Positions 5,579 through 41,368 are shown, counted from the stretch's first letter. The stretch: 45,810 bases of DNA from a virus (IMGVR_UViG_2521172732_000010), one strand, 5' to 3'. Notes: generated from the letters alone by a model not told the origin. Made by a program: numbers and translations.

Positions 5579-5651
5579 GGCTGAACTCCTGAAATAGCTG
5601 TGAAAATATCGCCCGCGAAATGCCGGGCTGATTAGGAAAACAGGAAAGGGG

Positions 5652-5795
5652 TTAGTGAATGCTTTTGCTTGATCTCAGTTTCAGTATTAATATCCATTTT
5701 TTATAAGCGTCGACGGCTTCACGAAACATCTTTTCATCGCCAATAAAAGTGGCGATAGTGAATTTAGTCTGGATAGCCATAAGTGTTTGATCCAT
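5652..5795 (-). CDS. kil: Kil (host-killing, FtsZ inhibitor)
   Basis: 47 codons [47 protein letters not shown]. Confidence 0.9.
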
Positions 5796-5928
5796 TCTTT
5801 GGGACTCCTGGCTGATTAAGTATGTCGATAAGGCGTTTCCATCCGTCACGTAATTTACGGGTGATTCGTTCAAGTAAAGATTCGGAAGGGCAGCCAGCAA
5901 CAGGCCACCCTGCAATGGCATATTGCAT
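5764..5928 (-). CDS. cIII: CIII (FtsH inhibitor)
   Basis: 54 codons MQYAIAGWPVAGCPSESLLERITRKLRDGW... ; overlaps kil by 32 nt as in lambda; ORF is below the size cut-off of the supplied track. Confidence 0.85.
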   Translation of the reverse strand: MQYAIAGWPVAGCPSESLLERITRKLRDGWKRLIDILNQPGVPKNGSNTYGYPD

Positions 5929-6000
5929 GGTGTGCTCCTTATTTATACATAACGAAAAACGCCTCGAGTGAAGCGTAATTGGTATGCGGTAACGCTGCGC

Positions 6001-6369
6001 TCAGGCGGCCTTGATAGTCATATCATCTGAATCAAATATTCCTGATGTATCGATATCGGTAATTCTTATTCCTTCACTACCATCCATTGGAGGCCATCCT
6101 TCCTGACCATTTCCATCATTCCAGTCGAACTCACACACAACACCATATGCATTTAAGTCGCTTGAAATTGCTATAAGCAGAGCATGTTGCGCCAGCATGA
6201 TTAATACAGCATTTAATACAGATCCGTGTTTATTGAGTCGGTATTCAGAGTCTGACCAGAAATTATTAATCTGGTGAAGTTTTTCCTCTGTCATTACGTC
6301 ATGGTCAATTTCAATTTCTATTGATGCTTTCCAGTCGTAATCAATGATGTATTTTTTGATGTTTGACAT
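6001..6369 (-). CDS. ea10: Ea10-like early protein
   Basis: 122-aa ORF MSNIKKYIIDYDWKASIEIEIDHDV... matching my recollection of lambda Ea10. Confidence 0.8.
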   Translation of the reverse strand: MSNIKKYIIDYDWKASIEIEIDHDVMTEEKLHQINNFWSDSEYRLNKHGSVLNAVLIMLAQHALLIAISSDLNAYGVVCEFDWNDGNGQEGWPPMDGSEGIRITDIDTSGIFDSDDMTIKAA

Positions 6370-6551
6370 CTATTCATATCCTCATAGATAAAAAATCGCC
6401 CTCACACTGGAGGGCAAAGAAGATTTCCAATAATCAGAACAAGTCGGCTCCTGTTTAGTTACGAGCGACATTGCTCCGTGTATTCACTCGTTGGAATGAA
6501 TACACAGTGCAGTGTTTATTCTGTTATTTATGCCAAAAATAAAGGCCACTA

Positions 6552-37300: not shown

Positions 37301-37742
37301 GAAACTGTCAGCCAATCAGATTGAAGGCGATATTGTCAAAACGGTCAGCAAGTCTTTCCCCCGCACGAACAGTTATGCCAGTGGCACCATCACGGTAAGA
37401 ATCAGTGATGATCAGAAATTTGACCGGCAGGTCATGATACCGCCAGTGTTATTCCGCGGTGGTAAGCATGAGAATTTCAACAGTAATAACCAACAGTCAT
37501 ACTGGTATTCAACCTGCCGGTTAAGAGTGACCCGCAATGGTCAGGAGATTTTTAATCAGTCCACGACGGATGCTCAGGGCGTATTTTCCTCAGTTATAGA
37601 TATGCCTGCCGGACAGGGGACGCTGACACTGACATTCACCGTATCTTCATCAGGAGCGAATAACTGGACACCAACAACCAGTATCAGCGATCTGCTGGTT
37701 GTGGTGATGAAAAAATCCACAGCAGGTATCAGTATCAGCTGA
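34344..37742 (+). CDS. J: central tail fibre / host specificity protein J
   Basis: 1132-aa ORF matching lambda gpJ, including the C-terminal receptor-binding region. Confidence 0.95.
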
Positions 37743-37808
37743 ATTTTATAACCCATAACGGGCGTCAGAAATGACGCCTTTTTTATTGCAGAAAAGCGAG
37801 AGGTAATT

Positions 37809-38408
37809 ATGCGTAAACTTTATGCCGCCATTTTGTCCGCAGCCATCTGTCTGGCCGTATCCGGTGCGCCTGCATGGGCGTCTGAACATCAGTCCACGCT
37901 GAGCGCGGGCTATCTTCATGCCTCGACGAACGTTCCCGGCAGTGATGATCTGAACGGGATTAACGTGAAATACCGTTATGAGTTTACGGACACACTGGGG
38001 ATGGTGACGTCGTTCAGCTATGCAGGAGACAAGAATCGCCAGCTGACCCATTACAGCGATACCCGCTGGCATGAAGATTCCGTTCGTAACCGCTGGTTCA
38101 GCGTAATGGCGGGGCCGTCTGTGCGCGTGAATGAATGGTTCAGCGCGTATGCGATGGCGGGTGTGGCTTACAGCCGTGTGTCGACTTTCTCCGGGGATTA
38201 TCTCCGCGTAACTGACAACAAGGGGAAAACGCACGACGTGCTGACCGGAAGTGATGACGGTCGCCACAGCAACACGTCTCCGGCGTGGGGAGCTGGCGTG
38301 CAGTTTAACCCGACCGAATCCGTGGCCATTGATATTGCTTATGAAGGCTCCAGCAGTGGCGACTGGCGCACTGACGGTTTCATCGTGGGTGTCGGTTATA
38401 AGTTCTGA
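37809..38408 (+). CDS. lom: Lom outer-membrane protein (Ail/Lom family)
   Basis: 199-aa ORF with signal peptide MRKLYAAILSAAICLAVSGAPAWA and beta-barrel-like sequence. Confidence 0.9.
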   Translation: MRKLYAAILSAAICLAVSGAPAWASEHQSTLSAGYLHASTNVPGSDDLNGINVKYRYEFTDTLGMVTSFSYAGDKNRQLTHYSDTRWHEDSVRNRWFSVMAGPSVRVNEWFSAYAMAGVAYSRVSTFSGDYLRVTDNKGKTHDVLTGSDDGRHSNTSPAWGAGVQFNPTESVAIDIAYEGSSSGDWRTDGFIVGVGYKF

Positions 38409-38472
38409 TTAGCCAGGTAACACAGTGTTATGACAGCCCGCCGGTTCAGGCGGGCTTTTTTGTGGGGTGAAT

Positions 38473-41368
38473 ATGGCAGTAAAGATTTCAGGTGTACTGA
38501 AAGACGGCACAGGAAAACCGGTACAGAACTGCATAATCCAGCTGAAAGCAAAACGTAACAGCACCACGGTGGTGGTGAACACGCTGGCCTCAGAAAATCC
38601 GGATGAAGCCGGGCGTTACAGTATGGACGTTGAGTACGGTCAGTACAGCGTTATTCTGTTGGTGGAAGGGTTCCCGCCGTCACATGCCGGGACCATCACC
38701 GTGTATGAAGATTCCCGACCCGGTACGCTGAATGATTTTCTCGGTGCCATGACGGAGGATGATGCCCGTCCGGAGGCATTGCGACGTTTTGAACTGATGG
38801 TGGAAGAGGTGGCGCGTAACGCGTCCGCAGTGGCACAGAACACGGCAGCCGCGAAGAAGTCAGCCAGTGATGCCAGCACATCTGCCAGTGAGGCGGCAAC
38901 CCATGCGACTGATGCTGCAGATTCAGCACGTGCAGCCAGCACGTCAGCCGGACAGGCCGCGACGTCGGCTCAGGAGGCTTTTTCCAGCGCAGGAACGGCA
39001 TCAGCAAAAGCCTCTGAGGCATCAAAAAGTGCTGCCGCTGCAGAGTCCTCAAAAAGCGCGGCGGCTACCAGTGCCGGTGCGGCGAAAACGTCAGAAACGA
39101 ATGCGGCAGCGTCACAACAATCAGCAGCCACTTCTGCATCCACCGCGACCACGAAAGCGTCAGAAGCAGCCACTTCAGCACGGGATGCGTCGGCTTCAAA
39201 AGAGGCGGCAAAATCATCAGAAACGAACGCAGCCTCGAGCGCCAGCAGCGCAACTTCCTCGGCAACGGCGGCAGCAAATTCTGCGAAGGAGGCAAAAACG
39301 TCCGAGACGAACGCTAAGTCTTCTGAAACGGCAGCGGGACAGAGCGCCTCAGCTGCGGCAGGCTCAAAAACAGCGGCTGCGTCGTCTGCCAGTGCCGCGT
39401 CAACAAGTGCCGGGCAGGCCTCAGCCAGTGCCACCGCCGCCGGAAAATCGGCAGAAAGTGCTGCATCGTCTGCTTCAACAGCCACAACGAATGCTGGCGA
39501 AGCCGCTGTACAGGCCAGCGCAGCAGCGAGGTCTGCTTCCGCAGCGAAGACATCCGAGACGAACGCGAAAGCGTCGGAAACCAGCGCAGAATCCTCAAAA
39601 ACGGCTGCCGCATCATCCGCCAGTTCGGCGGCGTCATCGGCATCATCTGCGTCTGCTTCAAAAGATGAGGCGACCAGACAGGCGTCAGCAGCGAAGGGCA
39701 GCGCCACGACGGCATCCACGAAGGCGACAGAGGCAGCTGGTAGTGCGACGGCAGCAGCTCAGAGCAAAAGTACGGCGGAATCTGCAGCAACGCGCGCTGA
39801 GACAGCGGCAAAAACGGGCAGAGGATATTGCATCCGCCGTGGCGCTTGAGGATGCGAGCACGACGAAAAAGGGGATAGTACAGCTCAGCAGCGCGACCAA
39901 CAGCACGTCTGAAACGCTGGCGGCAACGCCAAAGGCAGTAAAAGCAGCCAATGACAATGCTGAGAAACGTCTGCAGAAAGATCAGAACGGTGCGGATATC
40001 CCTGGCAAAGACACCTTTACGAAAAATATTGGTGCCTGCCGTGCCTTCGGTGGGTCAGTAAGCACAACAACAGGAGACTGGACGACTGCACAGTTTATCG
40101 AGTGGCTGGATTCTCAGGGAGCATTTAACCATCCATACTGGATGTGCAAGGGTTCCTGGTCTTATGGCAATAATAAAATCATTACTGATACTGGTTGCGG
40201 TAATATTCATCTCGCCGGAGCTGTCATTGAAGTAATGGGGATAAAGTCAGCGATGACGATCCGCATTACCACACCGACCACCTCCACTGGTGGTGGAACA
40301 ACTAACGCCCAGTTTACCTATATTAATCACGGAACAGATTATTCACCTGGCTGGCGAAGGGACTATAACTCCAGAAATAAGCCAACGGCATCAGAGATCG
40401 GGGCGTTACCGTCAGGTGGAACAGCAGTATCATCAGTTAATCTGGCTTCAAAAGGTCGGGTAACTGCGCTTACAGACAATACGCAGGGGGCAACAGGTCT
40501 TGAGTTATACGAGGTGTATAACAACGGATATCCAACAGCGTATGGAAATATTATTCACCTGAAAGGGATGACAGCCGTTGGCGAAGGTGAGTTACTCATC
40601 GGCTGGAGTGGTACAAGCGGTGCTCATGCTCCGGCATTTATTCGTTCACGACGGGATACGACCGACGCAAACTGGTCGCCGTGGGCGCAGCTTTACACCT
40701 CAGCTCATCCTCCTGCAGAGTTTTATCCAGTCGGTGCACCAATCCCGTGGCCATCAGATACCGTTCCGTCTGGCTATGCCCTGATGCAGGGGCAGACTTT
40801 TGACAAATCTGCTTACCCGAAACTTGCAGCCGCTTATCCGTCAGGCGTGATCCCTGATATGCGTGGCTGGACGATTAAGGGCAAACCTGCCAGTGGTCGG
40901 GCCGTATTGTCTCAGGAACAGGACGGTATTAAATCGCACACCCACAGCGCCAGCGCATCCAGTACGGATTTGGGTACGAAAACCACATCGTCGTTTGATT
41001 ACGGCACTAAATCCACGAATAACACCGGGGCACATACACACAGTGTGAGCGGTACAGCCGCAAGTGCCGGAAACCATACTCATAGTGTCACAGGCGCATC
41101 AGCAGTCAGCCAGTGGTCACAAAATGGGTCAGTACATAAGGTAGTGTCTGCGGCCAGTGTGAATACAAGTGCTGCAGGAGCGCACACTCATAGTGTCAGC
41201 GGCACAGCTGCATCTGCAGGTGCTCACGCACATACTGTCGGTATTGGTGCTCATACGCACTCTGTTGCGATTGGTTCACATGGACACACCATCACCGTTA
41301 ACGCTGCGGGTAACGCGGAAAACACCGTCAAAAACATCGCATTTAACTACATTGTGAGGCTTGCATAA
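38473..41368 (+). pseudogene. stf: side tail fibre Stf, frame-disrupted as sequenced
   Basis: N-terminal frame MAVKISGVLKDGTGKPVQNC... ends at 39849; the +1 frame continues ...[17 protein letters not shown]... to the Stf C-terminus ...[15 protein letters not shown]; junction is an A-run (39810-39814). Confidence 0.75.

Follow-up and report, generated by a model that had tools for sequence, protein, structure and literature searches.

Cryptic lambdoid prophages are well known from Escherichia coli K-12, where they include DLP12, Rac and Qin. The prophage examined here lies in a window of 45,810 nucleotides (IMGVR_UViG_2521172732_000010; the window is the whole stretch of DNA that was analysed). 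It resembles the K-12 elements in combining a nonsense mutation, a small deletion and an insertion sequence, and the open reading frames (ORFs) of its repressor, of int/xis and of the cargo genes downstream of the tail-fibre genes are intact in the window. Unlike DLP12, Rac and Qin, it is much less decayed and carries only two or three real lesions. A further precedent comes from lambda PaPa, in which a frameshift in stf, treated by Hendrix and Duda in 1992, is reportedly a real and long-known mutation of the laboratory strain. The window shares with lambda PaPa (orf-401/orf-314, NC_001416) a side tail fibre gene that is broken into two ORFs by a shift of one base; its added A, however, lies elsewhere, at codon 446 of an allele with 964 codons, and is at odds with independent assemblies.

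Integrated in icd, the prophage is a hybrid of lambda and phage 21 that retains a complete gene order and is ~97% identical to lambda in the late region. Over all pieces compared, the window matches contig AIHS01000015.1 at 100% identity; this contig belongs to the 2012 draft of E. coli DEC15E (GCA_000250575.2), and its proteins are named DEC15E. As a reference we used the complete genome of the sister strain 15A together with about ten further near-identical assemblies, some of which are given below by labels beginning with L. From sequence identity, we infer that strain "15A" is DEC15A. Relative to the 15A copy, the DEC15E prophage shows 6 substitutions, 5 one-base run changes, one 4-bp deletion and the insertion sequence. 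In the PGAP annotation of the 15A prophage, E alone is broken, with an "internal stop", and W, L, stf, Q and Gam are all intact.

The gene for the major capsid protein, E (24974-25999, plus strand), contains an ochre TAA at 25670-25672, codon 233, where lambda has AAA; the earlier description of this nonsense codon as a substitution was correct. The stop is present in every close relative compared, including L003, L005, L008 and L009, and the corresponding 232-aa fragment is found on 74 contigs, among them the DEC15A, B, D and E drafts and contigs from Logan and ENA. This distribution indicates that the ochre codon is a real inherited lesion carried by the whole lineage. The antiterminator gene Q (PF06530 type; 14015-14529, plus strand) would encode 172 aa when intact and here yields a 27-aa product. 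A sequence-only reading had described its lesion as a one-base change in a homopolymer; it is actually a deletion of 4 bp (ATTC) between 14096 and 14097, at codon 28 of 172 and adjoining a TTT, which amounts to a net shift of -1. The deletion is common to three independent assemblies (L008, L009 and L013), whereas Q is unbroken in 15A, L010 and L015, and a 120-aa remnant of Q has been called on 29 contigs across NCBI, Logan and ENA. We therefore take it, from its sharing, to be a real lesion inherited within a sub-lineage.

A third lesion escaped the sequence-only reading, as did two noncoding run changes (8126-8131 and 14582-14587). It is a 1057-bp copy of IS903B (IS5 family; 1648-2704, plus strand) flanked by a 9-bp target duplication, GTTCTGCCT, at 1639-1647 and 2705-2713, and it interrupts a small DUF4222 gene of the early-left region. 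The alignment to 15A breaks at this site with a 9-bp overlap, and copies elsewhere that are 100% identical to the inserted element are annotated as IS903B. Among the assemblies compared, the insertion is private to DEC15E and absent from relatives, and its structure marks it as a real lesion.

The prophage would thus be really defective, because its non-homopolymer lesions either occur in independent assemblies or bear the signature of transposition. The ochre codon in E, seen in a complete genome as well as in drafts, and the deletion in Q are both independently confirmed inactivating mutations in essential phage genes. Lacking both its major capsid protein and its late antiterminator, the prophage is predicted to give no infective particles on induction. 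The lesions in E and Q should by themselves be enough to abolish plaques, and a plaque test would therefore not discriminate between artefact and decay at the remaining sites. It should be noted that descent from an amber-mutant cloning vector (with ambers in W, E and S) was considered and rejected: W is frameshifted, the stop in E is ochre, and the element sits in icd of wild isolates.

A different type of change affects W, L and stf. In W (head-tail joining protein; 21473-21640, plus strand), a run of six A is reduced to five at 21602-21606, giving a -1 shift at codon 44 and a 55-aa product with an aberrant tail of 11 residues; the run is A6 in lambda and in every relative. In L (minor tail protein; 32268-32965, plus strand), T6 becomes T5 at 32375-32379, a -1 shift at codon 36 that splits the gene into ORFs of 67 and 221 aa, and every relative has T6. 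In stf (side tail fibre, 964 aa when intact; 38473-41368, plus strand), A4 becomes A5 at 39810-39814, a +1 shift at codon 446, and relatives have A4. For these three genes, the coordinates and alignments agree with the shifts first described. Two of the five run changes are noncoding. One, A7 to A6 at 8126-8131, lies beyond the 3' end of the cI-like repressor gene; A7 is found in all relatives compared, L001, L013 and L015 included, and a private substitution (8062) is only 64 bp away. The other, T7 to T6 at 14582-14587, sits between a pR'-like promoter (14507-14536) and a tRNA-Ile gene (14592-14666), with T7 in relatives and T8 in L010. A role for this T run as the U-tract of a terminator was also considered and dropped, as a scan found no terminator there, only the promoter-like site upstream.

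All five are one-base length differences inside mononucleotide runs, a class that leaves out Q (4 bp) and E (a substitution); the initial claim that every disruption sits in a homopolymer was accordingly too general. At the sites covered, none of the five was found in any relative (15A complete genome, L003, L004, L005, L007, L008, L009, L013 and L015). The comparison of related genomes that had been suggested as a check thus separates the lesions, with E and Q shared and the run changes in no relative. Moreover, all five single-base indels fall in ancestral runs of at least 4, which hold 5.9% of the bases (P ~7e-7), and runs of at least 6, with 0.66% of the bases, account for four of them. 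This concentration is far beyond chance.

The spacer between kil and gam gives a further run difference, of another nature. A run of four C (G4 on the plus strand; lambda C5) at 5648-5651, minus strand, lies between the kil stop, which it closely follows, and the ATG of the 98-aa Gam. As previously noted from the sequence, this is a real difference from lambda, but it disrupts no gene: it breaks only the 138-codon "long gam" ORF of lambda, while the 98-aa form (5282-5578, minus strand), supported by the PGAP call in 15A and by the lambda alignment, is intact. Lambda Gam has a long and a short form (138 and 98 aa), the short one being the active inhibitor, and the 98-aa form of the window is identically placed, with 3 substitutions. 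Unlike lambda, in which the 138-codon ORF is annotated, the window and its close relatives do not conserve that ORF; only the 98-aa ORF is conserved and annotated by PGAP. C4 is also present in 15A, L013 and L015, and other relatives show further changes in the spacer. The C4 allele is best regarded as a natural C-run polymorphism of the kil-gam spacer, and as neither decay, error nor gene lesion.

Outside DEC15E, the run alleles occur almost only in error-prone assemblies. The stf insertion is the sole difference between the 2012 draft of DEC15A and the complete genome of 15A over 12.9 kb. For calibrating project error over the tail genes with the DEC15A draft, only ~29 kb was usable, since its contig AIHO01000023.1 matches 15A perfectly for ~16 kb but then departs from it, with 47 mismatches that begin at the 3' end of H. 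The 221-aa L product is on record on two contigs only, from the DEC15E and DEC4A drafts, and the DEC4A draft, when compared with EDL933, shows the same T6 to T5 change together with three other one-base indels in 11.5 kb. The exact 55-aa W product is found on 157 contigs. We examined ten places with this frameshift in seven assemblies, which are of chromosome size with shredded phage genes and carry 12-33 one-base deletions per ~10 kb, as against 0-2 in clean assemblies. Among RefSeq complete genomes, W A5 was found in none of 2761 records, stf A5 in none of 3357 and L T5 in one of 4134. DEC15B and DEC15C, whose drafts come from the same project as that of DEC15E, have no private run indel in ~21 kb.

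The spectrum of private changes is also unusual. Three substitutions are private to the draft (8062 G>T, 27471 C>T and 35654 T>C), each of them either a genuine private SNP or an error of the consensus; the C at 35654 agrees with the J allele that the DEC15D draft has in this region. The private branch accordingly counts 5 one-base indels against 3 substitutions. Mutation-accumulation studies reportedly put indels at 9% or 21% of mutations, and the observed ratio has P ~3e-4 with the first share and 0.013 with the second. In the host flanks, 16.9 kb compared with 15A gave a single difference: an HTH gene in the neighbouring island has one inserted base (C>CC), and this insertion is present in none of the 382 complete genomes that contain the stretch. 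The left flank includes 8.5 kb of core host genes with 8 runs of 6 or more bases, and no indel relative to 15A was seen there. If the 23 long runs of the two flanks were hit at the per-run rate of the prophage, ~1.9 changes should occur in them; P(0) is ~0.14 in this small sample of 16.9 kb. The flanks neither contradict nor support an artefactual origin of the run changes.

Taken together, allele sharing, privacy and occurrence elsewhere make it very likely that this is a decayed prophage in which the five one-base changes of A/T runs are homopolymer miscalls of the draft rather than mutations of the bacterium. The artefactual origin is supported because the run indels are private to one draft and are otherwise seen in error-prone assemblies. 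The question of artefact or decay, as first posed, would be answered by both: artefact for W, L, stf and the two noncoding runs, decay for E, Q and IS903B. As regards the single sites, W A5 and L T5 are probable miscalls, the stf insertion is almost certainly a miscall recurring within one sequencing project, and the noncoding A6 at 8126 and T6 at 14582, both private to the draft, are probably miscalls too. They resemble the errors of 454, Ion Torrent and unpolished long-read data, namely one-base over- or undercalls confined to mononucleotide runs. The likeness to flow-based or long-read errors goes further: A/T runs of 6-7 are undercalled in four cases out of five, coding and noncoding sequence are both hit, independent assemblies lack the changes, and other error-prone assemblies go wrong at the same sites time and again. 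The density, ~1 per 9 kb, is low compared with that of the unpolished long-read assemblies examined (1-3 per kb). For other E. coli drafts produced by the same institute in 2012, 454 Titanium sequencing and Celera assembly were used (PMC3491183). The link of the DEC15E draft to 454 is circumstantial, via these other drafts.

We considered whether natural slippage could instead have produced the changes in W, L, stf and the two noncoding runs after the loss of E and Q, so that all lesions would be real; the setting could be a mismatch-repair-deficient or long-stored DEC15E culture. Such an origin is unlikely. It would fit a prophage already dead through E and Q, in which later lesions are neutral, and natural slippage favours long runs; IS903B, a real private event, shows that the DEC15E copy changed on its own, and the indel-free 8.5 kb of flanking core genes also agrees with it. 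Nevertheless, the identical stf insertion is in the DEC15A draft and not in the 15A complete genome, and SNPs place DEC15E nearer to DEC15B and DEC15C, whose drafts carry stf A4. The identical L allele is known only from DEC4A, a draft of the same project but of an unrelated serotype, and the W allele goes elsewhere with error-rich assemblies. Moreover, five indels to three substitutions is improbable even in a mutator, and the run alleles are essentially missing from thousands of complete genomes. Less plausible still, and very improbable in our view, is that the W, L and stf runs are hypermutable, contingency-type tracts that reversibly switch late genes in lambdoid prophages. This would explain the 55-aa W product on 157 contigs and the one complete genome with L T5, and, if true, real sub-populations would lie behind the DEC15E alleles and behind some of the 157 contigs with the W frameshift. 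However, all ten W-frameshift places show pervasive one-base deletions across every neighbouring gene, and the runs, at 4-6 bases, are short by the standard of contingency loci. Accurately sequenced natural genomes do not hold both run lengths for W or stf, given their absence from the RefSeq records above, and hold T5 in a single record for L.

At the other extreme, the whole sequence might be unreliable and every pseudogene call, E and Q included, an artefact. The draft does contain consensus errors, and the advice to treat every pseudogene call as provisional followed from this concern; it proved too broad, as the E and Q calls are solid through their sharing. The TAA in E is present in the 15A complete genome, in four DEC15 drafts and in recent NCBI, Logan and ENA assemblies, the Q deletion recurs in independent assemblies, and neither lesion is a homopolymer change. 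The sharing of both lesions across independent assemblies already refutes a wholly artefactual origin, to which we give practically no weight.

Homopolymer miscalls over real decay, the reading that we favour, would imply a layered history. The first layer would be the lineage-wide loss of the capsid protein through the ochre codon in E, and a second, restricted to a sub-lineage, would be the 4-bp deletion early in the late-gene antiterminator. The insertion of IS903B into the early-left region would form a layer found in DEC15E only. On top of this real decay, the draft consensus would contain length miscalls in W, L, stf and the two noncoding runs.

The main value of these findings lies in quality control, and they have no bearing on any open biological question: W, L and stf should not count as prophage decay. 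What is actually present is a lambda-like prophage that is almost complete but has been disabled by a nonsense codon, a 4-bp deletion and an insertion sequence. Since the frameshifted W is on 157 contigs and the frameshifted L on 2, miscalls that strike the same runs give rise to phantom pseudogenes over and over, and surveys of prophage decay can be misled by them.

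The late region of the window is ~97% identical to phage lambda, and its early region is similar to lambda imm21 and phage 21, with an integrase of the phage-21 type. Among the complete E. coli genomes searched, the sole near-perfect match was NZ_CP077477.1 (E. coli O111:H21 strain 15A), in which the element adjoins icd. The window is not the 15A record; contig AIHS01000015.1 of GCA_000250575.2, whose proteins are named "Escherichia coli DEC15E", was 100% identical to it over every piece fetched. AIHS is the final accession among the 2012 drafts of the DECA collection. ARAGORN identified two tRNA genes, Ile-GAT and Thr-TGT (14592-14747), directly downstream of Q and of a pR'-like promoter (14507-14536); in the 15A record, PGAP annotates tRNA-Thr only, not tRNA-Ile. 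A cargo cluster is found downstream of stf/tfa (from 42069), with genes for a Mn catalase, two DUF892 ferritin-like proteins, a KGG stress protein and a SAM methyltransferase, followed by a partial second tail-fibre-assembly gene. Past the window end (45810), the island runs on for ~5 kb (978159-983356 in the 15A record) through an alpha/beta hydrolase gene, ompT, an HTH gene and an acetyltransferase gene to a partial icd fragment, so that the window covers only part of the integrated element.

Aligned base by base, the window differs from the 15A record by six substitutions (5996, 7008, 8062, 27471, 35654 and 45777), five one-base run-length changes, one 4-bp deletion and one 1057-bp insertion. 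Two of the run changes are noncoding (A7 to A6 at 8126 and T7 to T6 at 14582), while the others fall in W (A6 to A5, 21602), L (T6 to T5, 32375) and stf (A4 to A5, 39810). Since only 5.9% of the window bases lie in runs of at least four and 0.66% in runs of at least six, the clustering of single-base indels in such runs (5 of 5 and 4 of 5, respectively) is not due to chance.

The sequence-only reading had listed five one-base frame changes in homopolymer runs, and three of them stand as described: W, L and stf each translate with a frameshift in the window, and all three are intact in lambda and 15A. The lesion in Q was mis-typed as a run slip and is a 4-bp deletion, ATTC being missing after 14096, at codon 28 of 172. 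The change in the long form of gam is no lesion; it corresponds to a C4 run (C5 in lambda) that directly follows the stop codon of kil and leaves the 98-aa Gam ORF undamaged. C4 is also found in the 15A record and in other relatives. The nonsense codon that it had noted in E was recovered (TAA at codon 233, AAA in lambda). Three further differences had been overlooked, namely the two noncoding run changes and the insertion, an IS903B element of 1057 bp (1648-2704) flanked by a 9-bp target duplication (1639-1647 and 2705-2713). The gene that it splits, of the DUF4222 type, is located between xis and a gene of the TraR/DksA family. The element falls outside the coordinates given in the sequence-only reading.

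We extended the comparison to copies of the prophage in four DEC15 drafts (A, B, C and D), in several recent NCBI assemblies and in an ENA metagenome assembly. The E stop is present in all close relatives and is flagged as an "internal stop" by PGAP in the 15A complete genome; the 232-aa N-terminal E fragment occurs in 74 contigs. The Q deletion is also carried by GCA_047625145.1, GCA_006233015.1 and ENA ERZ28582589, with the 120-aa Q remnant in 29 contigs, and Q is intact in 15A and two other relatives. Neither 15A nor any other relative compared carries the IS903B insertion, which is a real lesion of DEC15E; changes seen in its draft and in none of these relatives are termed private here. 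Of the six substitutions, those at 5996, 7008 and 45777 also occur in some relatives; the other three (8062, 27471 and 35654) and all five run changes were found in none of those compared. Indeed, the two closest relatives (L004 and L008) differ from the window almost exclusively at private positions. It should be noted that the private C at 35654, in J, matches the J allele of this region as assembled in the DEC15D draft, which would fit reads recruited from a paralogous prophage, or gene conversion. The private substitution at 8062 lies 64 bp from the run indel at 8126. GCA_011762955.1 has its own one-base run difference near 8068 (A5 versus A4, noncoding, between N and the repressor gene), and thus some run-length variation, natural or from assembly, occurs in this stretch in other assemblies.

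The private run alleles were then sought elsewhere. Over 12.9 kb, the 2012 DEC15A draft (AIHO01000027.1) shows a single difference from the 15A complete genome, which is the same stf +A in the same A4 run. Because both carry 45777-C, which was missing from every other relative compared at this site, we infer that the draft and the complete genome probably represent the same strain. Moreover, SNPs and the Q deletion both place DEC15E with DEC15B and DEC15C, in which stf has A4; by this grouping, the stf A5 of the DEC15E and DEC15A drafts is judged to be homoplasic. None of the 3357 complete-genome records holding the stretch has stf A5. A second DEC15A contig (AIHO01000023.1) matches the 15A complete genome perfectly for ~16 kb. 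Beyond ~15979 of the fetched locus, over a stretch that starts at the 3' end of H and includes J, there are 47 mismatches and two one-base gaps, with J broken into fragments. In this stretch, sequence of a second lambdoid prophage may have been mixed into the draft.

The 221-aa L frameshift product was found in two contigs only, those of DEC15E and DEC4A, the latter being a same-project draft that matches O157:H7 prophages. Compared with EDL933, the DEC4A contig has the same T6 to T5 change in L and three more one-base indels in 11.5 kb. L T5 occurs in 1 of 4134 complete-genome records, and the one other source of the 67-aa N-terminal L fragment was a Logan contig, which has eight one-base indels in 1.6 kb. 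The 55-aa W product is deposited under several accessions and present in 157 contigs. Ten of these places, in seven assemblies, were checked; all lie in contigs of chromosome size whose phage genes, those for terminase and portal among them, are shredded, with 12-33 one-base deletions per ~10 kb versus 0-2 in clean assemblies. W A5 was found in 0 of 2761 RefSeq complete-genome records. The 55-aa product is a truncated phantom that public databases propagate as a protein.

On the private DEC15E branch, there are five one-base indels versus three substitutions in 44.7 kb. In E. coli, indels account for ~9% of spontaneous mutations in the wild type and ~21% in mismatch-repair mutants, according to mutation-accumulation studies; at these approximate shares, the probability of at least five indels among eight events is 3e-4 and 0.013, respectively. 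The same contig provided 16.9 kb of flanking sequence, which we also compared with 15A. The flank from icd through phoQ into roxA (8.5 kb) is identical, and the sole difference is a C to CC insertion in the other flank (position 4759 of the DEC15E flank locus L035, ~3.6 kb past the window end), in a gene for an HTH-domain protein, intact in 15A; this insertion was found in 0 of 382 complete genomes holding that stretch. Runs of at least six were unchanged in the flanks (0 of 23), which is a weak test, as ~1.9 changes are expected at the prophage per-run rate (P ~0.14).

Taken together, two superimposed processes very probably account for the window: a real, light prophage decay and homopolymer miscalls in the draft consensus. 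From the sequence comparisons, miscalls of the 2012 draft consensus best explain all five run-length changes, with the highest confidence for stf and somewhat lower confidence for the other two genes (W and L) and the two noncoding runs. The DECA drafts were presumably also obtained with 454 Titanium and Celera. These were used for other E. coli drafts of the same institute and year (PMC3491183). The main rival is recent natural slippage in the DEC15E stock. Slippage would have to account for identical alleles in other same-project drafts and in error-rich assemblies, for the fact that thousands of finished genomes almost entirely lack them and for the indel-heavy spectrum, and we consider it improbable.

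Beneath the putative miscalls, the element is an ordinary, lightly decayed lambdoid prophage. An ochre codon has inactivated capsid gene E throughout the O111:H21 lineage, the 4-bp deletion has inactivated Q in a sub-lineage, and DEC15E carries the IS903B insertion. Particle production should already be blocked by the loss of E and Q. Homopolymer miscalls in flow-based and unpolished long-read assemblies and defective lambdoid prophages are both well known, and no new biology is involved. For stf, the frameshift of laboratory lambda is a real precedent, although at another position in the gene. The same runs are miscalled repeatedly, which seeds phantom truncated proteins in public databases, and the headline homopolymer pattern very probably does not belong to the organism itself.
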